Origin: Gaiellaceae bacterium
Lineage (GTDB): Bacteria > Actinomycetota > Thermoleophilia > Gaiellales > Gaiellaceae
Reading direction: 5' to 3'
Length of the DNA: 64,000 nucleotides
Assembly (NCBI GenBank): GCA_035763525.1
Contig: DASUAX010000089.1
Location: 884-64,883, forward strand
Both the position numbers and the translations under genes were made by a program. How positions within the stretch are numbered: position 1 is the first letter of the stretch; every line of letters starts with the position of its first letter. Under the pieces are notes generated by a model. It was given only the letters and a program-made list of their open reading frames with translations. It ran no database searches and was not told the origin of the DNA. Below are positions 3,753 through 58,448 of the stretch, in pieces.

Positions 3753-4724
3753 CTACTCTTTCGAGAGCCAGGCGTCAAGCACCCGTTGCTCCTTCGCGCG
3801 ATCGAGGCCCGCGTCCGTTCCGGCCGGCGCCTCGCCGCGCGCGACCCAGGCGAGCGTGTCGCGCACCGTTTCCTCGAGCGGGCGTGTCTCGAGCCCGGCG
3901 CCGAAGGCGGGCGAGGGATCGACCGAGAGCATCCCGGCGTACTCGGCGCTCGAGAGCCAGAGCGGGAGCTCCAGCCACTCGCCGACGTCGTGCGCGAGCA
4001 GGAAGTCGCCGTCGACCCAGACGAGCTCGGCGTCCGATCGCGCGACGCCGCGGCAGGTATCGAGCAGCGTCGCCCGGGTCACCGGTCGGTCGACCGCGTT
4101 GAAGGTCCCGGCGAGGCCGTCCTCGGCCGCGCGCACGATCCAGCCCGCGAGGTCGCGGGCATCGATCACCTGAGCGTCGGCGTCGGGCGGCGCGGGTGCG
4201 AGCACGCGGCCGCCGGCCGCGATCCGCTCGGGCCAGTACGTGAAGCGGCCGGTCGGGTCCCAGGGCCCGACGATCAGGCCCGGCCGCACCACGAATGCGT
4301 CGGGGAAGCGCTCGCGAACAACGTCCTCGCAATCGGCTTTCAGCTCGCCGTACGCCTCGCGCCACTCCTCCGTCGGCGCCTCGAGCTCGCGCACCGCGGA
4401 GCCCTCGGTCGGAGGCGTCGAGAGATCGGCGTAGACCGAGATCGACGAGACGAACGTGTAGTGCCCGACGTCTCCGAGCACGTCGATCGTCTCCCGGACG
4501 ACGCGCGGCACGTAGCCGCTCGTGTCGAGGACCGCGTCGAACGAGCGGCCGGAGAGCGCGTCCAGGCCGCCGTCGCGGTCGCCGTGGAGCTTCTCGACGC
4601 CGGGGAAGAGCTCGGGCCGCGTACGGCCGCGGTTGAACGTGGTCACGTCGTGCCCGCGCGCGAGCGCGACGTCGACGGTGTGACGGCCGAGGAACTGCGT
4701 GCCGCCGAGGACGAGGATGCGCAT
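3753..4724 (-). CDS. NAD-dependent epimerase/dehydratase family protein
   Basis: 323 aa. N-terminal MRILVLGGTQFLGRH Rossmann motif; extended-SDR architecture. Confidence 0.85.
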   Translation of the reverse strand: MRILVLGGTQFLGRHTVDVALARGHDVTTFNRGRTRPELFPGVEKLHGDRDGGLDALSGRSFDAVLDTSGYVPRVVRETIDVLGDVGHYTFVSSISVYADLSTPPTEGSAVRELEAPTEEWREAYGELKADCEDVVRERFPDAFVVRPGLIVGPWDPTGRFTYWPERIAAGGRVLAPAPPDADAQVIDARDLAGWIVRAAEDGLAGTFNAVDRPVTRATLLDTCRGVARSDAELVWVDGDFLLAHDVGEWLELPLWLSSAEYAGMLSVDPSPAFGAGLETRPLEETVRDTLAWVARGEAPAGTDAGLDRAKEQRVLDAWLSKE

Positions 4725-4975: not shown

Positions 4976-5448
4976 TCCGCCATGCCGAGCCGCGTGACCA
5001 TGCCGCGGTGATCGGCGTGATCGACGAGTGGTGGGGCGGACGGTCGATGGCGGCGATGCTGCCGAAGCTCTTCTTCGTCCACTTTCGCGAGACGTCGTTC
5101 GTCGCCGAGGAGGGCGGCCGTGTCACGGGGTTCCTGTGCGGGTTCCGCTCGCAGACGTTTCCCGAGGAGGCGTACATCCATTTCGTCGGCGTCGCGCCGG
5201 AGAAGCGCGGCGGCGGGCTCGGGCGCGAGCTGTACGAGCGGTTCTTCGCCGCGGTCGCCCCCCGTACGGTCGTCCGTGCCGTCACCTCGCCCGTCAACGA
5301 ACGGTCGGTCGCGTTCCACCGCGCGCTCGGCTTCGAGGTCGAGCGTGTCGACGAGGACTACGACGGGCGCGGCGAGGCGCGCGTCCTCTTTCGCAAAGCG
5401 CTTCAAGAGGCTCCAGCCGGCGCGCGATCATTCGGTCAGAACCCCTAA
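4972..5448 (+). CDS. GNAT-family N-acetyltransferase
   Basis: 158 aa. Acetyl-CoA binding motif VGVAPEKRGGGLGRELY; GTG start overlaps the upstream stop. Confidence 0.85.
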   Translation: MIRHAEPRDHAAVIGVIDEWWGGRSMAAMLPKLFFVHFRETSFVAEEGGRVTGFLCGFRSQTFPEEAYIHFVGVAPEKRGGGLGRELYERFFAAVAPRTVVRAVTSPVNERSVAFHRALGFEVERVDEDYDGRGEARVLFRKALQEAPAGARSFGQNP

Positions 5449-13407: not shown

Positions 13408-13914
13408 GTGCCGCTCCCCGACCCGACGCGTGGCCCCGTCACGCGGCCCCGGTCGCTCGACGCGACCGACCGCGCGATCATCGAGGCGCTGCAGTCGAAC
13501 GGCCGGGCGTCCTTCCGCGGCGTCGCCTCGCGGATCGGCGTCGCCGAGGGGACGGTCAGGGCTCGCTATGCGCGACTCGTCGAGGACGGCATCCTCCAGG
13601 TCACCGGAGTCACGAACCCGCTCGGCCTCGGCTTCGAGGCGATGGCGATGATCGGGATCAAGACGACCGGGAGCCCGGAGCCGGTCGCGGACGCGATCGC
13701 GGGGTGGGAGGAGGCGAGCTACGTCGTCGTCACGGCCGGGAGCTTCGACGTGCTCGTCGAGGTCGTCTGCGTCGACCGCCGCCACCTGCTCGAGCTGACG
13801 ACGCGGGCGCGCGCCACTCCCGGTGTGGCGACCACCGAGACGTTCCTCTACCTCGATCTCGCGAAGCAGGTCTTCGCCTGGGGCACGCACATGGACAACG
13901 GCGCCGCCGCATGA
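13408..13914 (+). CDS. Lrp/AsnC-family transcriptional regulator
   Basis: 168 aa. LDATDRAIIEALQSNGRASFRGVASRIGVAEGTVRARYARLVEDGIL HTH plus a C-terminal AsnC ligand domain. Confidence 0.9.
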   Translation: MPLPDPTRGPVTRPRSLDATDRAIIEALQSNGRASFRGVASRIGVAEGTVRARYARLVEDGILQVTGVTNPLGLGFEAMAMIGIKTTGSPEPVADAIAGWEEASYVVVTAGSFDVLVEVVCVDRRHLLELTTRARATPGVATTETFLYLDLAKQVFAWGTHMDNGAAA

Positions 13915-14047
13915 CCGTAGGCTCGACGGAGCTCATCACCGGCGTAGGCTCGACGGAGCCGGCAAGGAGCGGAGGTTGCGGCTTTGCCGCCGCCGAGGCG
14001 GATGCAGAGCGGAGGCGGCGGCTTTGCCGCCGCCCGGAGCCGGAATC
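13915..14047 (+). repeat. intergenic repeat element, internally duplicated copy
   Basis: CGTAGGCTCGACGGAGC occurs at 13916 and 13943. GAGCGGAGG..GCGGCTTTGCCGCCGCC occurs at 13967 and 14007. The same modules occur at 57294-57357 and in diverged form at 17169-17239. Confidence 0.7.
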
Positions 14048-15112
14048 ATGACCGTGCACGACGTGAGGCTCGAGAACGTCACGAAGCAGTTCGCCGACGT
14101 GACCGCGGTGGACGAGATGTCGCTCGACGTCGAGAGCGGCAAGTTCTACGCCTTCCTCGGGCCGTCGGGCTGCGGCAAGACGACCACGCTGCGGATGATC
14201 GGCGGCTTCGAGGAGCCGACGGAGGGGACGATCTACCTCGGCGACCGAACGGTCACGGGGCTGCCGCCGTACAAACGAGACGTCAACACCGTCTTCCAGA
14301 GCTACGCCCTCTTCCCGCATCTCACCGTCTTCGAGAACGTCGCCTTCGGCCTTCGCCGCAGGCGCGTCAAGAAGCAGCTGCTGCGTGGTCAGGTCGAGGA
14401 GATGCTGCGCATCGTCGGGCTCGAGGGCTACGGCGGGCGCCGCCCGAAGCAGCTCTCGGGAGGCCAGCAGCAGCGGGTCGCGCTCGCGAGGGCGCTCGTC
14501 AACCGCCCGCGCGTGCTGCTCCTCGACGAGCCGCTCGGGGCGCTCGACCTGAAGCTCCGCAAGGAGATGCAGCTCGAGCTGAAGCGCATCCAGCACGAGA
14601 TGGGCTTCACGTTCATTCACGTGACGCACGACCAGGAGGAGGCCATGACGATGGCCGATCGCATCGTCGTCATGAACCGCGGCCGGATCGAGCAGCTCGG
14701 CGACCCTGCCGAGCTGTACGAACGGCCGCGCACGGCGTTCGTCGCGAGCTTCCTCGGCGTCTCGAACCTGCTCGGCGGCGTCGTGGCCGGGCCGGAGCTC
14801 GTGCGGCTCGAGAGCGGCCAGGAGCTGCGTGTCGCGGCCGGGGTGCTGAACGGGCATACGGGGCCCGTCTCGGTCGGCATCCGGCCGGAGAAGGTGAGGA
14901 TCGGCGGCGACGGCGTGAACCGCCTCGCCGGGCAGATCGTCGAGCGGGCCTACGTCGGCGTCTCGACGCAGTACGTCGTCAAGACGGACGTCGGGCAGGT
15001 GAGCGTGTACGTGCAGGGAGCGGGCGAGCACGTGCCCGGCGAGCAGCTCCAGCTGTCGTTCGCGCCCGAGTCAGCATTCGTCGTTTCCAGATCGGAGGAG
15101 GATCGCCCATGA
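14048..15112 (+). CDS. potA: spermidine/putrescine-type ABC transporter ATP-binding protein
   Basis: ATG 14048. Walker A GPSGCGKTT, signature LSGGQQQRVALARAL, Walker B LLLDEP, and a C-terminal TOBE-like domain. Confidence 0.9.
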   Translation: MTVHDVRLENVTKQFADVTAVDEMSLDVESGKFYAFLGPSGCGKTTTLRMIGGFEEPTEGTIYLGDRTVTGLPPYKRDVNTVFQSYALFPHLTVFENVAFGLRRRRVKKQLLRGQVEEMLRIVGLEGYGGRRPKQLSGGQQQRVALARALVNRPRVLLLDEPLGALDLKLRKEMQLELKRIQHEMGFTFIHVTHDQEEAMTMADRIVVMNRGRIEQLGDPAELYERPRTAFVASFLGVSNLLGGVVAGPELVRLESGQELRVAAGVLNGHTGPVSVGIRPEKVRIGGDGVNRLAGQIVERAYVGVSTQYVVKTDVGQVSVYVQGAGEHVPGEQLQLSFAPESAFVVSRSEEDRP

Positions 15113-16305: not shown

Positions 16306-17168
16306 TGCGCCTGCTGCACCGTCAGAAGGGAGCGATCCCGTACATGCTGCTCGCGCCGGGCATGGCGTGGCTGCTCGTCTTCTTCGTGGTGCCGATGTGG
16401 TACCTCGCGAAGATGTCGCTGTCGTCGGGGCTGTTCCCCCTGTTCAACTTCGGTTGGGCGTGGGGGAACTTCCACGACGCGATCAGCCTGTACCAGACGC
16501 AGTTCGTCCGCTCCGGTCAGTACGCGGCGATCGCGACGGCGATTGCGCTCGTCGTCTCGTATCCGCTCGCCTACTGGATCGCATTTCGCGGCGGCCGCTG
16601 GAAGAACCTCTTCCTGCTGCTCGTGATCGCGCCGTTCTTCGTCACGTACCTGATCCGCACGCTCGCGTGGCAGACCATCCTCGCCGACAACGGCGTGATC
16701 GTGAAGACGCTGCAGCACGTCGGCATCCTCGGGTCCGACGGGCGCCTGCTCGCAACCTCGGCGGCGGTGATCGCGGGCATCACCTACAACTTCCTGCCGT
16801 TCATGGTGCTCCCGCTCTACGTGAGCCTGGAGCAGATCGACCAGCGGCTCATCGAGGCGGCCGAGGACCTGTACGCGTCGAAGCCGCGCGCGTTCCTGCG
16901 CGTGACGTTCCCTCTCTCCCTGCCGGGCGTCTTCGCCGGCGTGCTCCTGACGTTCATCCCGGCGGCCGGCGACTTCATCAACGCGCAGCTGCTCGGCACG
17001 CCGCGCCAGTACATGATCGGGAACGTCATCCAGTCGGAGTTCCTCGCCGTGCGCGACTACCCGACCGCGGCGGCGCTTTCGTTCGTGCTGATGGCGGCGA
17101 TCCTCGTGCTCGTCCTCGTCTTCGCGCGGATTCTCGGCACCGAGCGACTGACGGTGTCGCACGTATGA
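16306..17168 (+). CDS. potB: polyamine-type ABC permease
   Basis: TTG 16306 is the likely start (ATG 16343 is the alternative). Has the EAA loop IEAAEDLYASKPRAFLRVTFPLSLPG. Confidence 0.85.
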
Positions 17169-17239
17169 GGCGTAGACCCGCCGGAGCCGAGCAAAGAGCG
17201 CGGTCGGCTTTGCCGGCGCCGGAGCGGGCTTTCAGGTGG
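17169..17239 (+). repeat. diverged copy of the intergenic repeat element
   Basis: CGTAGACCCGCCGGAGC ... CGGTCGGCTTTGCCGGCGCCGGAGCGGG. The 3' half is nearly identical to 57331-57356. Confidence 0.55.
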
Positions 17240-18028
17240 GTGCGGCGTCATGTCCTGACCGCGTACGCGGCGCTCGCGCTCGCGTACCTGTTCCTGCCGA
17301 TCGCGATCGTCGTCGCCTTCTCGTTCAACAATCCGAAGGGCCGCTTCAACTTCACGTGGGCGGGCTTCACGTGGAAGAACTGGGAGAACCCGTTCGCGTT
17401 CCCGGGCATCGGCCCCGCGCTTCGCGTCAGCATCGAGCTCGCCCTCCTCTCGTCGCTGATCGCGACGATCCTCGGGACGCTCATCGCGCTCGCGCTCGTC
17501 CGCTATCGCTTCCGCGGCAGCGCGACCACCAACATGCTCATCTTCATCCCGATGACGACGCCCGAGGTGGTGATGGGCGCCTCGCTGCTGACGCTGTTCG
17601 TCAACTGGCGCATCGCGCAGGGCTTCGGGACGATCCTGATCGCACACATCCTCTTCAACATCAGCTACGTCGTCGTCACCGTGCGCGCGCGGCTCGTCGG
17701 GTTCGACCGCCACCTCGAGGAGGCGGCGATGGATCTCGGCGCCAACGAGTGGGTGACGTTCTTGCGCGTGACGCTGCCGCTGATCATGCCGGGCATCCTC
17801 GCGGCGGGGTTGCTCGCGTTCGCGCTCTCGATCGACGACTTCGTGATCACGTACTTCAACGCCGGCGCGACGACGACGTTCCCGCTCTTCGTGTGGGGCG
17901 CGGCGCGCGTGGCGACCCCGCCGCAGATCAACGTGATCGGGACGGCGATCTTCGTGATCGCCGTCAGCGGGATGCTCGCGAACATCCTCTTCCAGAACTA
18001 CCGCGCACGGAAAGGAGTGCTCGTATGA
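17240..18028 (+). CDS. potC: polyamine-type ABC permease
   Basis: GTG 17240 gives VRRHVLTAYAALALAYLFLPIAIVVAFSFN, the usual PotC N-terminus. Has the EAA loop EEAAMDLGANEWVTFLRVTLPLIMPG. Alternative ATG 17165 would translate the repeat. Confidence 0.85.
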   Translation: MRRHVLTAYAALALAYLFLPIAIVVAFSFNNPKGRFNFTWAGFTWKNWENPFAFPGIGPALRVSIELALLSSLIATILGTLIALALVRYRFRGSATTNMLIFIPMTTPEVVMGASLLTLFVNWRIAQGFGTILIAHILFNISYVVVTVRARLVGFDRHLEEAAMDLGANEWVTFLRVTLPLIMPGILAAGLLAFALSIDDFVITYFNAGATTTFPLFVWGAARVATPPQINVIGTAIFVIAVSGMLANILFQNYRARKGVLV

Positions 18029-52940: not shown

Positions 52941-53262
52941 GGACTGCCTGTTCTGCAAGCTCGTGCGCGAGGGAGACCACGTTCGCGCCGCCGACGGGTT
53001 CGTCGCGATCGCGGACATCCACCCTCAGGCGCCGACCCACCTGCTCGTCCTGCCCGAGCGTCACGTCGACACGTTCCGCGACGTGGCCGAGTTCCCGCCG
53101 GAAGAGGCGGCGCGCATGCTGGCGTTCGTGGCCGACACCGCGGCAGAATCGGGCTTGACGGACTACCGCGTGGTCGTCAACGTCGGCCCCGGTGGTGGGC
53201 AGACCGTGTTCCACCTCCACTGGCACATCCTCGGCGGCCGCCCGATGGGAGAGAAGCTGTGA
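52924..53262 (+). CDS. HIT-family (histidine triad) protein
   Basis: 112 aa with CLFCKL and the HLHWHILGG triad. Confidence 0.85.
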   Translation: MPEPREDCLFCKLVREGDHVRAADGFVAIADIHPQAPTHLLVLPERHVDTFRDVAEFPPEEAARMLAFVADTAAESGLTDYRVVVNVGPGGGQTVFHLHWHILGGRPMGEKL

Positions 53263-54250: not shown

Positions 54251-55618
54251 GGCGACGAAGTCCCGGCGCCGGATCAGCGCCAGGGCCACGACCGCGCCGG
54301 CTGCGGCGACTCCCGTGCCGACGAGCAGGATGTCGTGCAGGCCGTGCACGAACGCCGCCGGCGTCCGAGCGTTCCCGGTCTTCGCCGAGAAGATCGCGCC
54401 CAGCGCCGCGATGCCCGTTGCGATCCCGATCTGGCGGAACGTGTTGTTGATGCCCGAGGCCATCCCGGCGCGCTCGACGCGCACCGTCGACACCGCCGTC
54501 GTCGCGAGCGGCGCGTTCACGAGCCCGATCCCGACGCCGCCGATCAGGAACCCGGGAAGCAGCACCGTCCAGTGTGAGCTCGTCGTGACGCGGCTCATCG
54601 TCCACATCGCGACCGCGTTCAGCGCGAGCCCTGTCCCGATCAGCGCGCGGATGGGAACGCGCGCGCTCAGCCGCCCCGCGAGCGGCGCCGCGAAGAACGA
54701 GAGGACCGACAGGGGGAGGAAGCGAACCCCCGTCTCGAGCGCGGACAGGTGGAGGATGTCCTGGAGGTACAGGGTCAGGTACAGGAACATCGAGAACATC
54801 GACGCCGAGATCGCGAACGCGGTCGCCTGGGCGCCGACGAAGGCCGGGCGGCGGAAGAGCGCGAGGTCGATCATCGTGTGCCCGCCCCGCGCCTGCGATG
54901 CGACGAACACGATCAGCGCGACCGCTGCGACCGCGAACAGCGCCAGGATGAGGGCGCTGGCCCAGCCGTGGGCGTTCCCCTCGATCAGCGCCAGGATCAG
55001 GCAGAAGAGGCCGATCGTGAACGTGACGAGACCGAACGGGTCGAGCCTGCTGTGCTCCGGGTCCTTCGACTCGTGCAGTTGGCGAACACCGAGCGCGATT
55101 GCGGCGACCCCGATCGGGATGTTGACGAAGAAGATCCACCGCCACGAGATCCACGACGTCAGGGCGCCGCCCGCAAGCGGTCCGATCGCGACCGCCGCGC
55201 CGATCACCGCGCCCCAGAGGCCGAATGCCGTGCCGCGCTCCTTGCCGTGGAACTCCTGCGAGAGCAGGGCGAGCGCGGTGGCGAACATCATGGCGCCGCC
55301 GATCCCCTGCAGGCCGCGGGCGATGATCAGGAAGAGCGGGTCGAACGCGGCGCCGCAGGCTGCGGAGGCGGCCGTGAAGAGCACGATCCCGAGCAGGAAC
55401 AGGCGCTTGCGCCCGAACAGGTCGGCGAGCGCTCCTGCGGTGAGGACGCACGTCGCCAGTGCGAGCGCATAGGCATCGACGACCCACTGCAGCTGCGAGA
55501 ACGACGCCGTCAGCGCATGCTGGATCGGCGGCAGCGCGACGTTCACGATCGTGATGTCGAGCAGCAACATGAAGGTCGCCGTGCAGACGGCGACCAGCGT
55601 CCACCACTTCCTCGCCAC
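54230..55618 (-). CDS. MFS transporter, DHA2 (14-TM, EmrB/QacA-like)
   Basis: 462 aa with LLDITIVNVALP, LADLFGRKR and 14 hydrophobic segments. Confidence 0.9.
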   Translation of the reverse strand: MARKWWTLVAVCTATFMLLLDITIVNVALPPIQHALTASFSQLQWVVDAYALALATCVLTAGALADLFGRKRLFLLGIVLFTAASAACGAAFDPLFLIIARGLQGIGGAMMFATALALLSQEFHGKERGTAFGLWGAVIGAAVAIGPLAGGALTSWISWRWIFFVNIPIGVAAIALGVRQLHESKDPEHSRLDPFGLVTFTIGLFCLILALIEGNAHGWASALILALFAVAAVALIVFVASQARGGHTMIDLALFRRPAFVGAQATAFAISASMFSMFLYLTLYLQDILHLSALETGVRFLPLSVLSFFAAPLAGRLSARVPIRALIGTGLALNAVAMWTMSRVTTSSHWTVLLPGFLIGGVGIGLVNAPLATTAVSTVRVERAGMASGINNTFRQIGIATGIAALGAIFSAKTGNARTPAAFVHGLHDILLVGTGVAAAGAVVALALIRRRDFVASGPQAA

Positions 55619-55640
55619 CGGGGCAACCTACACTGGGCGC

Positions 55641-57293
55641 GTGGAGCAAACGCTCTCGGTTTCCAACGCGGTGGCCGCCGAGCTCGCGGGGATCTCGGAC
55701 GGTGTTCTCGACGCGCTCAAGGAGCGCCTCGCGTGCAACGTCCGCCTGCGCGGGAACCAGCTGACGCTCGAGGGCGACGAGCAGCACGTGGAGAATGCCC
55801 GCGCCGTGATCGACGAGCTCGTCGAGCTGGTCGAGGGCGGGCACCAGATCGGCTCCCATACGGTCGACGCGGTGCTCGGCACGCTCGAGGCGGGCCAGGA
55901 CGTGCGCGAGGTGTTCGACGCGGTCGTCTGGCGGCACCGCGGCAAGAAGATCTCCCCGAAGACGGTGACGCAGAAGCGGTACGTCGACTCGATTCGCCGC
56001 TCCACGGTCACGTTCGGGATCGGCCCGGCAGGCACCGGGAAGACGTACCTCGCGATGGCTTTGGCGGTCGCCGCCCTGCACGAGCGAGAGGTGCAGCGGA
56101 TCATCCTGACGCGCCCCGCCGTCGAGGCGGGCGAGCGGCTCGGGTTCCTGCCCGGCGACCTGATGGCGAAGGTCGACCCGTACCTGCGCCCGCTCTTCGA
56201 CGCCCTCTACGACATGCTCGACCCCGACAAGGCGAACGCGTACATCGAGCGCGGCACGATCGAGGTGGCGCCGCTCGCCTTCATGCGCGGCCGCGCGCAG
56301 CCTTTGACGAGCGGCGTGTTGACGCCCGACGGCTTCCGACCCATCGGCGGCCTTCGCGTCGGTGATCTCGTGACCGGCTCGGACGGCCGGCCGACACCGG
56401 TGCTCGGCGTCTACCCGCAGGGGCGCAAGGAGGTCTTCCGGCTACGGACGCAGGACGGCGCCTCGACCCTTTGTTGCGGAGAGCACCTGTGGCAGATGGT
56501 GGACGGAAGCGTGCTCGAGACAGATGAGCTGCGGGACGGCCTGCGCCGCGGGGCGCAGTACGAGCTGCCGTTGCTCTCGGCGCCGGTCGAGTTCGATTCC
56601 ACGCACGTCCCGATCGATCGCCGCGCGCGTGGCGGCGCCGTGGCGACGATCACCCCGTCGGTCATGCGGAAGGAATCTCTGCGGGCCGCGCCCGTCGAGA
56701 GGATCGCGCTCCTCCAGGGGCTCCTCGACGGGGCCGGACGGGCGTCGGTCGGGTCGGCAGCCATGCGCGAACAGGTCGTCTACCTGGCGCGCTCGCTCGG
56801 AGGCGTCGCGACGTTCGAGACGGTGTCTGACGCCAAGGGTGTCAGACACCTGGTGGACGTTCGGCTGCCCGGCGCGGGTTCGCCGCCGAAGCGGTTCGTC
56901 GACTCGATCGAGCCGGCAGGCGAGGCGGAGACGGTCTGCATCCAGGTCGCTGCGGCCGACTCGCTCTATGTGACCGATGATTTCCTCGTCACGCACAACA
57001 CCCTGAACGACAGCTTCATCATCCTGGACGAGGCGCAGAACACCTCGCCGGAGCAGATGCAGATGTTCCTGACGCGGCTCGGATTCGGGTCGAAGATCGT
57101 CGTCACCGGTGACATCACGCAGATCGACCTGCCGCGCGAGTCGCGCTCCGGGCTCGTGCACGTGCGCGACGTGCTGCTAGACGTCGAGGGAATCCAGTTC
57201 GTCGAGTTCGGACACAAGGACGTGGTGCGTCACAAGCTCGTACAGCGCATCGTCGAGGCCTACAAGGAGCACACGGACGAGCGCAACACATGA
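55641..57293 (+). CDS. phoH: PhoH-family ATPase interrupted by an intein
   Basis: GTG 55641, the first start that avoids overlap with the MFS gene. Walker A GPAGTGKTY and LTRPAVEAGERLGFLPGD. FMRGR and TLNDSFIILDEAQN (Walker B) are separated by 235 extra codons. Confidence 0.9.
   Translation: MEQTLSVSNAVAAELAGISDGVLDALKERLACNVRLRGNQLTLEGDEQHVENARAVIDELVELVEGGHQIGSHTVDAVLGTLEAGQDVREVFDAVVWRHRGKKISPKTVTQKRYVDSIRRSTVTFGIGPAGTGKTYLAMALAVAALHEREVQRIILTRPAVEAGERLGFLPGDLMAKVDPYLRPLFDALYDMLDPDKANAYIERGTIEVAPLAFMRGRAQPLTSGVLTPDGFRPIGGLRVGDLVTGSDGRPTPVLGVYPQGRKEVFRLRTQDGASTLCCGEHLWQMVDGSVLETDELRDGLRRGAQYELPLLSAPVEFDSTHVPIDRRARGGAVATITPSVMRKESLRAAPVERIALLQGLLDGAGRASVGSAAMREQVVYLARSLGGVATFETVSDAKGVRHLVDVRLPGAGSPPKRFVDSIEPAGEAETVCIQVAAADSLYVTDDFLVTHNTLNDSFIILDEAQNTSPEQMQMFLTRLGFGSKIVVTGDITQIDLPRESRSGLVHVRDVLLDVEGIQFVEFGHKDVVRHKLVQRIVEAYKEHTDERNT
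56295..56999 (+). mobile_element. intein (class-3-like: Ala1, Trp66, Cys215, Thr233-His-Asn235, +1 Thr) with degenerate LAGLIDADG remnant
   Basis: The insert lies exactly between the conserved PhoH residues GR and TLND. It has Hint blocks A, B, F and G, ends in THN|T, and has ALLQGLLDGAG in the centre. Confidence 0.8.
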
Positions 57294-57357
57294 GCGTAGG
57301 CTCGACGGAGCTCATCCAGGAGCGGAGGTGCCGGCTTTGCCGGTGCCGGAGCGGGAC
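57294..57357 (+). repeat. intergenic repeat element (reference copy)
   Basis: GCGTAGGCTCGACGGAGCTCATC is identical over 21 nt to 13916-13936. CCGGCTTTGCCGGTGCCGGAGCGGG matches 17205-17229. Confidence 0.7.
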
Positions 57358-57735
57358 ATGATCTCGGTGGAGGTCTCGAACCGGAGCGGGGTGGAGGTCG
57401 ACGAGGCGGGAGCGGTCGAGCTCGCCGGACGCGTCCTTCACGCCGAGGGCGTCGGCGACGGCGAGCTCGGCATCGCGTTCGTCGGCCGGGAGGAAATGCG
57501 CGGGCTCAAGCGTGACCACCTCGGGGTCGACGAGACGACCGACGTGCTCTCGTTTCCGATCGACGGCCGCGACGAGCTGCCCGATGGAGTGCCGCGCGCA
57601 CTCGGCGACGTCGTCCTCTGCCCGCAGGTCGTCGGCGACGAGTGGCGCTGGCCGCTCGCGCACGGCCTCCTACACCTGCTCGGCTACGACCACGGCGAGG
57701 AGATGAGCGCACGTGAGGAGGAGCTCCTCGCATGA
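57358..57735 (+). CDS. ybeY: rRNA maturation endoribonuclease YbeY
   Basis: MISVEVSNRSG N-terminus and the zinc motif HGLLHLLGYDH. Confidence 0.9.
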   Translation: MISVEVSNRSGVEVDEAGAVELAGRVLHAEGVGDGELGIAFVGREEMRGLKRDHLGVDETTDVLSFPIDGRDELPDGVPRALGDVVLCPQVVGDEWRWPLAHGLLHLLGYDHGEEMSAREEELLA

Positions 57736-58448
57736 CGGCGCGGCGCGCGCCGACGATCATCGACTCGTTCAACTTCGCGTTCGAGGGGATCATCCACGTT
57801 CTCCGCACGCAGCGGAACCTGCGGATCCACTTCGCGATCGCGTTCGTCGTGCTGGTCGCGGCGCTGGTCGTGAACGTGACCAAGCTGGAGCTGATCGCGC
57901 TCCTCATCTCGGTCACGTTCGTGCTGATCGCCGAGATGCTGAACAGCGCGCTCGAGGCTGCGATCGACATCGCCACCACGTCGTTCGACCCGATGGCGAA
58001 GCTCGCGAAGGACATCGCCGCAGGCGCCGTCCTGATCGCCGCTGTCAACGCGGTCGCCGTCGGCTACCTCGTCTTCGCCGGCAAGGTCGCCGACCGCTCG
58101 GCGCACCTGCTCGACCGGCTGCGCGACGCGCCTGCGGAATTGACGCTCGTCGCGCTCGTGCTCACGCTCATCGTCGTGATCGCGACGAAGGCGTTCACGG
58201 GCCGCGGCACGCCGCTGCGGGGCGGCGTCCCCTCCGGGCACGCGGCGCTCGCCTTCGCCGGCTGGATGGCGGCCACGTACATCGCCGGGAACGATCACCG
58301 CTTCCTCGTCTCGTCGATCGCGCTGATCATGGCGCTGCTCGTCGCGCAGACGCGCGTCGAGTCGGGCATCCACTCGGCGCTGGAGGTCACCTACGGCGCG
58401 CTCGTCGGCACGCTCGCCACCCTCGTCGTCTTCCAGGTGTTCTCGTGA
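57732..58448 (+). CDS. dgkA: diacylglycerol/undecaprenol kinase (DgkA) fused to a PAP2 phosphatase domain
   Basis: The N-terminal 120 aa is a DAGK_prokar fold (IAEMLNSALEAAIDI, AKDIAAGAVL). The C-terminal part has PAP2 motifs (PSGH, TRVESGIHSALEV). Confidence 0.85.
   Translation: MTARRAPTIIDSFNFAFEGIIHVLRTQRNLRIHFAIAFVVLVAALVVNVTKLELIALLISVTFVLIAEMLNSALEAAIDIATTSFDPMAKLAKDIAAGAVLIAAVNAVAVGYLVFAGKVADRSAHLLDRLRDAPAELTLVALVLTLIVVIATKAFTGRGTPLRGGVPSGHAALAFAGWMAATYIAGNDHRFLVSSIALIMALLVAQTRVESGIHSALEVTYGALVGTLATLVVFQVFS

Follow-up and report, generated by a model that had tools for sequence, protein, structure and literature searches.

The spacer between a phoH-like ATPase gene and ybeY, in a 64,000-nt stretch of contig DASUAX010000089.1 from a Gaiellaceae bacterium (hereafter the window, meaning the whole stretch analysed), consists of a short repeat with a reading frame that overlaps both genes. 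The phoH-like gene (55551-57293, + strand; Pfam PhoH in two separate stretches, E=3.5e-91) ends with TGA at 57291-57293, and ybeY (57358-57735, + strand; Pfam YbeY) begins with ATG at 57358, leaving a spacer of 64 nt (57294-57357). It is crossed by a mini open reading frame (ORF) of 23 codons (57290-57361, + strand), whose ATG overlaps the phoH stop as ATGA (57290-57293) and whose TGA (57359-57361) overlaps the ybeY start as a second ATGA (57358-57361); read from ATG 57290, it gives MSVGSTELIQERRCRLCRCRSGT. The unit of this copy is 68 nt long, that is, 2 modulo 3. An earlier note on this DNA had described the spacer as a 64-nt repeat with ATGA at each end, and both the sequence and the ORF coordinates agree with this. 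The ybeY stop in turn overlaps the next start as ATGA (57732-57735), and the gene order according to Pfam is PhoH, YbeY, DgkA-PAP2, Cdd (cytidine deaminase) and Era.

Two stem-loops and two Shine-Dalgarno-like blocks alternate within the unit, all on the + strand. In stem-loop 1 (57290-57315), the 5' arm ATGAGC (57290-57295), which holds the phoH stop and the mini-ORF start, pairs with GCTCAT (57310-57315; GCUCAU in RNA) across a 14-nt loop, GTAGGCTCGACGGA (57296-57309). The first Shine-Dalgarno-like block, GGAGCGGAGG (57319-57328), is invariant or nearly so in our alignment (A1), a conservation that arises partly by construction as the block is included in the search pattern described below; its last two G form the base of stem 2, so that the block is partly sequestered. 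Stem-loop 2 (57327-57347) is formed by GGUGCCGGC and GCCGGUGCC around a UUU loop, with 9 pairs including two wobble pairs (U.G and G.U). It is followed by a free Shine-Dalgarno-like block, GGAGCGGG (57348-57355), 6 nt upstream of the ybeY ATG at 57358. The small hairpin that had been noticed earlier in the 3' part of the repeat is thus present, although it is longer than was then supposed and the second helix, stem 1, had been overlooked. The self-complementary tetranucleotide CATG occurs at 57289-57292 and again at 57357-57360, and in the minimum-energy fold it can pair with itself and join both ATGA junctions, over only 4 bp.

A covariance model of the repeat finds three loci in the 64-kb window (~47 per Mb), all on the + strand and all in spacers between + strand genes. 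An exact second occurrence of the 5' module GTAGGCTCGACGGAGCTCATC lies at 13917-13937, as the earlier note had claimed, although it had placed the copy one position too low (13916-13936); the core of this module, GTAGGCTCGACGGAGC, has a further occurrence at 13944 and a degenerate one at 17172. Similarly, the reported recurrence of the 3' module holds as a match with 2 mismatches at 17204-17228 and not at 17205-17229, and the hairpin core GGCTTTGCC is present on the + strand at 13980, 14020, 17206 and 57333. The number of chance matches to the 5' and 3' modules expected from shuffled sequences is 0.00. The first of the two other loci, a composite copy A (13911-14051, + strand) between an AsnC-type regulator gene and an ABC-transporter ATPase gene, contains two 5' modules followed by two hairpin modules, and its bridging ORF of 46 codons runs from ATGA 13911-13914 to ATGA 14048-14051 (137 nt, again 2 modulo 3), with ATGACCGT on both flanks (13911-13918 and 14048-14055). 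Copy B (17165-17242, + strand; ATGA at 17165-17168), between two ABC permease genes, is decayed: it scores 50.9 bits (E=7e-9), has mismatches in both helices, and continues in frame into the permease gene that follows (GTG at 17240). Its length is 75 nt (0 modulo 3), and the ATG at 17165 overlaps the stop of the upstream permease and is in frame with the downstream one, which may therefore start 25 codons before GTG 17240.

Outside the window, species-representative genomes were scanned with the exact pattern GAGCGGAGGNNNNGGCTTTGCC, which gave at least 140 matches in at least 119 stretches (the resulting loci are labelled L001, L022, etc.). Among the matches listed, 114 of the at least 119 stretches come from soil metagenome-assembled genomes (MAGs) of Gaiellaceae, Thermoleophilia or "Actinomycetota" and carry the whole unit; the other five are chance matches in unrelated phyla, where the rest of the element is absent. 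The dispersed nature of the repeat, proposed earlier from the window copies, is therefore confirmed by many more copies. Units are present in at least 77 assemblies plus the window, and 135 distinct units were used to build the covariance model. The fetched loci contain 7-26 further insertions per Mb besides those found with the pattern, and in soil metagenomes carrying the window organism the element is covered at ~100 times the depth of its flanks (95% identity); as a rough extrapolation, a 3-Mb Gaiellaceae genome would harbour on the order of 50-150 copies. In L022, a Gaiellaceae locus 85% identical to the window over 5 kb, the element is ~90% identical. Metatranscriptome contigs, which are unstranded, also contain the element with many different flanks. 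The search of the window against Rfam gave 0 matches at the gathering score, and a permissive scan of 57230-57420 returned only noise (E at least 5). A full-text literature search for the sequence of the element found no paper, nor anything relevant on repeats in Thermoleophilia or Gaiellales, and the repeat is apparently undescribed as a sequence family. A phage origin was rejected: 16 exact 15-mer matches were found in viral contigs, none of them matches the covariance model, and they are consequently regarded as chance matches. No plasmid match was found either, and a plasmid origin was likewise dismissed. Many MAG contigs end within the element or an array of it (L003, L044, L088, L102, L112), so that the element seems to break short-read assemblies. 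Inside the copies, a run of 13 G in L073 (~4580-4600) and a run of N plus poly-C in L002 (~1075-1095) are probably assembly artefacts.

The consensus unit of 68 nt reads NTGAGC(C), the loop GTAGGCTCGACGGA, G(G)CTCA, 3-8 nt, GAGCGGAGG, YGCCGGC-TTT-GCCGGYGCC, GG(G)AGCGGG (GGAGCGGG), 1-7 nt and NTGA. Both helices covary. All 6 pairs of stem 1 show compensatory changes among the 135 units, and its arms occur as TGAGC/GCTCA, TGAGCC/GGCTCA, CCGGC/GCCGG, GGGCC/GGCCC, ACGTGC/GCACGT and others, with complementarity kept throughout. In stem 2, where the search pattern fixes the inner 3 pairs, compensatory changes are found in 4 of the 6 pairs that it leaves free, and 96.4% of the cells are paired; for example, at pair 45:61 there are 77 units with U.G, 44 with C-G and 5 with U-A, and pair 46:60 is seen as GC, AU, CG and GU. 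Taken together, 10 of the 15 pairs have compensatory changes and 92.8% of the cells in both helices are paired, compared with 27-55% when the partner columns are slid; the observed values were reached by none of 500 shuffles. The same two helices were returned by RNAalifold unaided. Since wobble pairs, which are common elsewhere in stem 2 as well, appear on the sense strand only, and A.C mismatches are rare, the structure works on the sense strand alone, which fits RNA or one strand of DNA. The element is thus predicted to form two RNA hairpins under sense-strand selection. The 14-nt loop of stem 1 is almost invariant across at least 77 genomes. An inner hairpin within it, GGCTC-GACG-GAGCC, was considered and rejected as a real structure: compensatory changes are absent and its pairing is disrupted in 47 of the 135 units, so it may represent an alternative fold at best.

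The modules are combined in several ways. One 5' module with one hairpin module is the commonest layout (96 insertions), alternating arrays of 2-4 units with periods of 65-72 nt are also found, and the order of copy A (two 5' modules, then two hairpin modules) occurs as well; hence the modules can duplicate separately. Joints at which the sequence goes back by 68 nt are present in metagenome and metatranscriptome contigs. In the copy at the ybeY-dgkA junction of L011 (880-1090, - strand), an extra hairpin module, CTCCGGC-TCCCCCGGG-GCCGGAG, lies between the 5' module and the standard hairpin, which indicates that the family has further module types.

With the coding strand of the neighbours judged by G+C content at third codon positions, ~125 insertions could be classified. 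In 86 of them the element is co-oriented with both neighbours, against 8 in which it is opposed to both (mostly fuzzy single-module matches), 8 between divergent genes and 3 between convergent ones; copies on both strands were found in only 7 of 115 sources (at least 114 loci plus the window). The element fits exactly between stop and start, which, together with its orientation, supports the earlier proposal that it sits at gene junctions. Of 84 cases, 50 end the upstream gene with the TGA of TGAGC(C), within the 5' arm of stem 1, and 12 with the TAG of GTAGG; in 62 of the 84 the start of the downstream gene follows GGCTTTGCC by 15-19 nt, i.e., 5-9 nt after the unpaired GGAGCGGG. In 23 of 86 cases no upstream gene ends on the 5' NTGA, and 7 of these have a TANNNT box 5-9 nt before the ATG and look like leaderless starts. 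What the sites share is therefore a start codon with A after it, and not the operon junction as such. At leaderless-like sites, judging by the sequence, the mini-ORF would be a leaderless cistron. A box of the TAGGGT/TAGAGT type is seen 7-8 nt before ATG or GTG in L002, L020, L080 and L098, where the start is leaderless-like, and L086 (~5330-5360) provides an empty site of this kind.

The bridging frame is kept in most copies. Among 61 insertions with clear flanks, the upstream stop is overlapped by an ATG, GTG or TTG in 52, and the downstream start reads NTGA in 53. When NTGA is present at both ends (46 insertions), the length is 2 modulo 3 in 40, and an exact bridge ORF, as at phoH-ybeY, is found in 38. 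Single units are 68 (22 copies), 71 (10) or 74 nt (3), thus differing by multiples of three, with one copy each of 69, 70, 72 and 76 nt; the extra triplets differ in sequence. Each unit of an array makes a separate link, at a period of 68. As an internal control, nine copies with a TAG stop and no overlapping start show no frame preference. The conserved loop is read in different frames in the TGAGC/GCTCA and TGAGCC/GGCTC variants (MSVGSTELI... versus MSRRLDGGS...), and the total length is still 68. The peptide varies while the nucleotides and the frame are kept, which argues for selection on nucleotides and frame and not on a protein.

Setting unoccupied sites beside occupied ones shows what an insertion does. 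In three clean orthologous comparisons, NTGA in one genome corresponds to NTGA + 64 nt + NTGA in another. The ybeY-dgkA junction is an empty ATGA in the window (57732-57735) and in L022, and is filled in L011 (GTGA-GG-GTAGG...GGGGACG-ATGA). The overlap of a HIT-like gene's stop with the start that follows it, an unoccupied target site in the window (GTGA, 53259-53262, + strand), is also empty in L011 (ATGA) and filled in L038 (ATGAGC-GTAGG...GGGC-ATGAGC). L060 and L074 present the same empty/filled pattern. The phoH-ybeY junction itself holds the element in the window and L022 but not in L011 (TAG, 16 nt, ATG), and empty alleles with an ATGA overlap were found for it in metagenome contigs (flanks at least 95% identical) and metatranscriptome contigs (at least 90%). 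Finally, the array in L065 faces a bare leaderless-type GTGAGC start in L086, which is 95% identical downstream. Insertion into operon junctions, as the earlier note had it, is thus borne out by the empty orthologous NTGA overlaps, but the habitat is wider than that and includes first-gene or leaderless-type starts and, occasionally, positions in frame inside genes.

The latter cases comprise L106 (3307-3383), where a copy lies in frame inside a dnaE2-like PHP-domain polymerase (..GKSGVGSTEPPKSGGAGFAGARAGTREP..); L101 (5186-5262), with a 66-nt in-frame N-terminal insertion that is empty in L030; and L052 (~4378-4455, - strand), with a reverse-oriented 69-nt in-frame N-terminal insertion that is empty in L104. 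These three were found by eye; a systematic screen gave two cases (L011, L063), both read on the antisense strand. Non-bridging copies tend to have lengths divisible by three, which suggests that translation acts as a filter.

Two further features bear on the target. The second codon after the element is AGC in 47% of cases versus 27.5% at empty NTGA overlaps, and the base opposite the first letter of the start codon covaries with it (GTGAGC with GCTCAC, ATGAGC with GCTCAT); these hint at a preferred NTGAGC target. A target duplication longer than NTGA was rejected: the flanks are only marginally more similar than permuted pairs at -2 and -3, and +5 to +8 show no such excess. Longer identical flanks are nevertheless present at individual sites, namely ACATGA at phoH-ybeY (57288-57293 and 57356-57361), AGATGA at the same junction in L022, and ATGACCGT at copy A, and they could reflect duplication of a longer stretch, separate insertion events or homogenisation. 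As to the hallmarks of MITEs (terminal inverted repeats matching those of a parent insertion sequence, and a target-site duplication), a search for terminal inverted repeats gave only the self-complementary CATG at either end; the NTGA repeats are present and no parent insertion sequence is known.

From these results, with a probability of about 0.7, we propose that the element is a non-autonomous dispersed repeat of Gaiellaceae that lands on NTGA starts and is tolerated because it rebuilds what it interrupts. It would insert at start codons followed by A, mostly 4-nt stop/start overlaps inside operons, leaving NTGA on both sides. The first NTGA would still terminate the upstream gene, and a ribosome reaching its TGA would have to open stem 1. 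The overlapping NTG would open a short frame through the element and hairpin 2 that ends on the TGA of the second NTGA, so that termination-reinitiation could hand the ribosome to the downstream start, and the unpaired GGAGCGGG, 5-9 nt before that start, would also permit independent initiation. The hairpins may serve in protection or stabilisation of the mRNA, in gating of the junction, or in recognition during insertion. The insertion would be nearly neutral because the element restores the stop, the coupling and the ribosome-binding site. Translation of the mini-ORF, the preserved coupling, the roles of the hairpins and the mode of movement are what we infer from the sequences compared.

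Several points weigh against this proposal. The bridging start is absent in 9 of the 61 copies with clear flanks, hence the mini-ORF is not obligatory, and the length of 68 nt is partly inherited by descent, so that the frame statistics overstate the independence of the copies. The first base of paired NTGA agrees in 33 of 46 cases versus 31.7 expected by chance, and TGA is functionally required in any case; consequently, the direct repeat cannot be demonstrated to be a target-site duplication. No transposase or other mobilising function was identified, with no search aimed at transposases having been made. Copies within a genome are only slightly more similar than copies from different genomes (0.851 vs 0.821), and there is no sign of recent bursts. 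The shuffle control of covariation does not correct for relatedness, against which it may be set that the variants of stem 1 are many and are found within single genomes. The folding energy of the single sequence is unexceptional for its G+C content (z = -1.09); single copies range from z = -0.2 to -2.4 at 72% G+C, which is not informative. The metatranscriptome contigs that carry the element are unstranded and may contain DNA.

The same covariation can be read in favour of the host. The element might be a host-selected cis-regulatory RNA module and not selfish DNA, in which protection of the upstream mRNA from 3' exonucleases, an RNase processing site or a protein bound to the loop sets the expression ratio of the neighbours and the spread is secondary; some REP sequences have been shown to set the expression ratio of neighbouring genes. 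Covariation would then record long-term selection on both helices, orthologous copies do persist between species (the window and L022; L001 and L048, with compensated stem 1), and the near-invariance of the stem 1 loop fits such a role. However, related genomes have an empty site at the same junction with nothing visible in its place, the neighbouring genes have no functional relationship, one junction may carry 1 to 4 copies, decayed copies exist, and hairpins required for mobility would be expected to conserve their structure just as well; we therefore find this explanation unlikely. Somewhat more doubtful still is an extension of our own proposal, according to which the element homes to starts by nucleic-acid pairing, with GCTCA(Y) as a guide to NTGAGC, the same helix gates termination-reinitiation, and the 14-nt loop docks a trans-acting factor; it is suggested by the first-letter covariation and the enrichment of AGC as second codon.

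The remaining explanations fare worse against the data. The conserved core opens with GTAG followed by a short palindrome, GCTC-GACG-GAGC, which might make the element a member of the GTAG-tagged REP superfamily moved by a RAYT (Y1) transposase; this inner hairpin is 91% paired with C to U changes that keep the wobble, and the few intragenic copies, one of them in a replication/repair polymerase, resemble those reported for REPs (PMC3733652). The lack of compensatory change and the 47 broken units tell against it, as do the covarying helix that places GTAG in a loop and not at an unpaired foot, the lack of inverted dimers, the rarity of sources with copies on both strands (7 of 115) and the 3 convergent insertions, in contrast to the preference of REPs for gene 3' ends (PMC3733652); we consider this membership very improbable. 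Hardly more can be said for a terminator or attenuator that is factor-independent and lacks a U tract, in which hairpin 2 would partly terminate transcription between operon genes and its repetition would be incidental. Hairpin 2 is indeed stable, G+C-rich and intergenic, with a 9-bp stem and a 3-nt loop, but there is no T run, a terminator scan of 56900-57800 was empty, and the hairpin is followed by GGAGCGGG, with the ribosome-binding site and a start within 10 nt; furthermore, the bridging frames pass through the hairpin, and arrays of up to 4 units lie upstream of genes that must be expressed. Neither a promoter pattern nor a terminator is present at the element. A functional micropeptide of 23 residues, to which the presence of an ORF with start and stop in most copies might point, is scarcely credible, given that the two main variants read GTAGGCTCGACGGA in different frames and so yield different peptides, that 9 of the 61 copies have no start, and that arrays would give several different peptides.

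A separate observation concerns the phoH-like gene itself, which contains an in-frame insert of ~700 bp (56299-56998; ...MRGR|AQPLTSGVLTPDG...LVTHN|TLNDSFIILDEAQN) that the orthologues in L022 and L011 lack. The Pfam match to PhoH falls into two stretches, and the insert gives only weak Hint-domain matches (Hint_2, E=0.02). Judging by its sequence, the insert is probably an intein.

The repeat has practical consequences. It seems to break short-read assemblies of abundant soil Actinomycetota, and in annotation it gives rise to spurious small ORFs, wrong start calls and N-terminal extensions. Its arrays may serve as markers for uncultured Gaiellaceae in the manner of variable-number tandem repeats, and the unit would offer high-G+C hosts a bicistronic coupling cassette that needs no further design. 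The unusually clean covariation, with stem 1 around the stop/start overlap, makes a role of RNA structure in termination-reinitiation directly testable.

Among known systems, bicistronic-design cassettes and natural ATGA-coupled gene pairs share with the element a leader ORF that ends on a start codon, where ribosomes reinitiate and unwind local structure (PMC12548453); the Gaiellaceae cassette differs in being natural, repeated and apparently mobile, with a function that is inferred. Rickettsia palindromic elements are a repeat family able to sit in frame inside protein-coding genes. The in-frame copies in L106, L101 and L052 resemble them, but such copies make up only a small part of the Gaiellaceae family, which resides mainly at stop/start junctions. 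REP/BIME sequences and GTAG-tagged repeats are G+C-rich hairpins of transcribed intergenic space that often form inverted dimers, favour gene 3' ends, those of convergent pairs included, and occasionally occur inside genes (PMC3733652). The likeness lies in short G+C-rich hairpins between genes, G.U pairs that point to an RNA role, a GTAG motif and occasional intragenic copies. Unlike these repeats, the Gaiellaceae element is unidirectional, forms direct arrays without inverted pairs, seldom lies between convergent genes, is tied to the downstream start codon and not to gene 3' ends, and carries a bridging ORF and a Shine-Dalgarno sequence. Its GTAG lies in the 14-nt loop closed by stem 1 and not at the unpaired foot of a 20-40-bp palindrome, the palindrome after GTAG being only 3-5 bp and invariant where it is not broken. 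No link to RAYT is known for the element, and a RAYT gene was not searched for.

The closest analogues are the MIRUs (mycobacterial interspersed repetitive units; Supply et al. 1997), which have been used in tuberculosis typing for decades; to our knowledge, their movement and function remain unsettled. The earlier note had recognised no described family, which still appears correct for the sequence, but a close functional analogue has been described (PMC12548453, PMC4473831). MIRUs are described as repeats between co-transcribed genes, co-oriented with them, with a small ORF that overlaps both neighbours by 4 nt; they form tandem arrays, and their sites, empty or filled, show direct repeats of a tetranucleotide (PMC12548453, PMC3184786, PMC4473831). 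They are defined as being without dyad symmetry (PMC4473831). The MIRU292 unit is 53 nt long, as read from Table 1 of PMC7977185. Read from its ATGA, it is 2 modulo 3 in length and gives the ORF MTRADDDAERSDEEERRR followed by a stop. Both elements are thus 40-100-nt dispersed repeats of high-G+C Actinomycetota that lie between operon genes in the same orientation as their neighbours; both have a small ORF with 4-nt overlaps at both ends, a unit of 2 modulo 3 (53 nt in MIRU292; 68, 71 or 74 nt in the Gaiellaceae element), tetranucleotide direct repeats with empty and filled sites, variable tandem arrays, and a Shine-Dalgarno-like AGGAGCGG a few nt before the terminal ATGA. This octamer is the only sequence that they have in common: local alignment does not exceed shuffles (p 0.26-0.29), and homology was therefore rejected for MIRU292, the one unit compared (p ~0.27).

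That a second, sequence-unrelated family follows MIRU-like coupling arithmetic suggests that start-codon insertion which preserves coupling is a recurrent strategy, and the features common to both are probably those that matter. Homing by pairing, if true, would represent a new insertion mechanism joined to a natural portable translational-coupling device, and could explain the movement of MIRUs. The Gaiellaceae element differs from MIRUs in its host, being found in Gaiellaceae and other Thermoleophilia MAGs and not in Mycobacterium, and in its two covarying helices, one of which holds the stop/start junction. Consequently, it is a new, structured variant of the MIRU kind, which works like a MIRU without being a member of that family.

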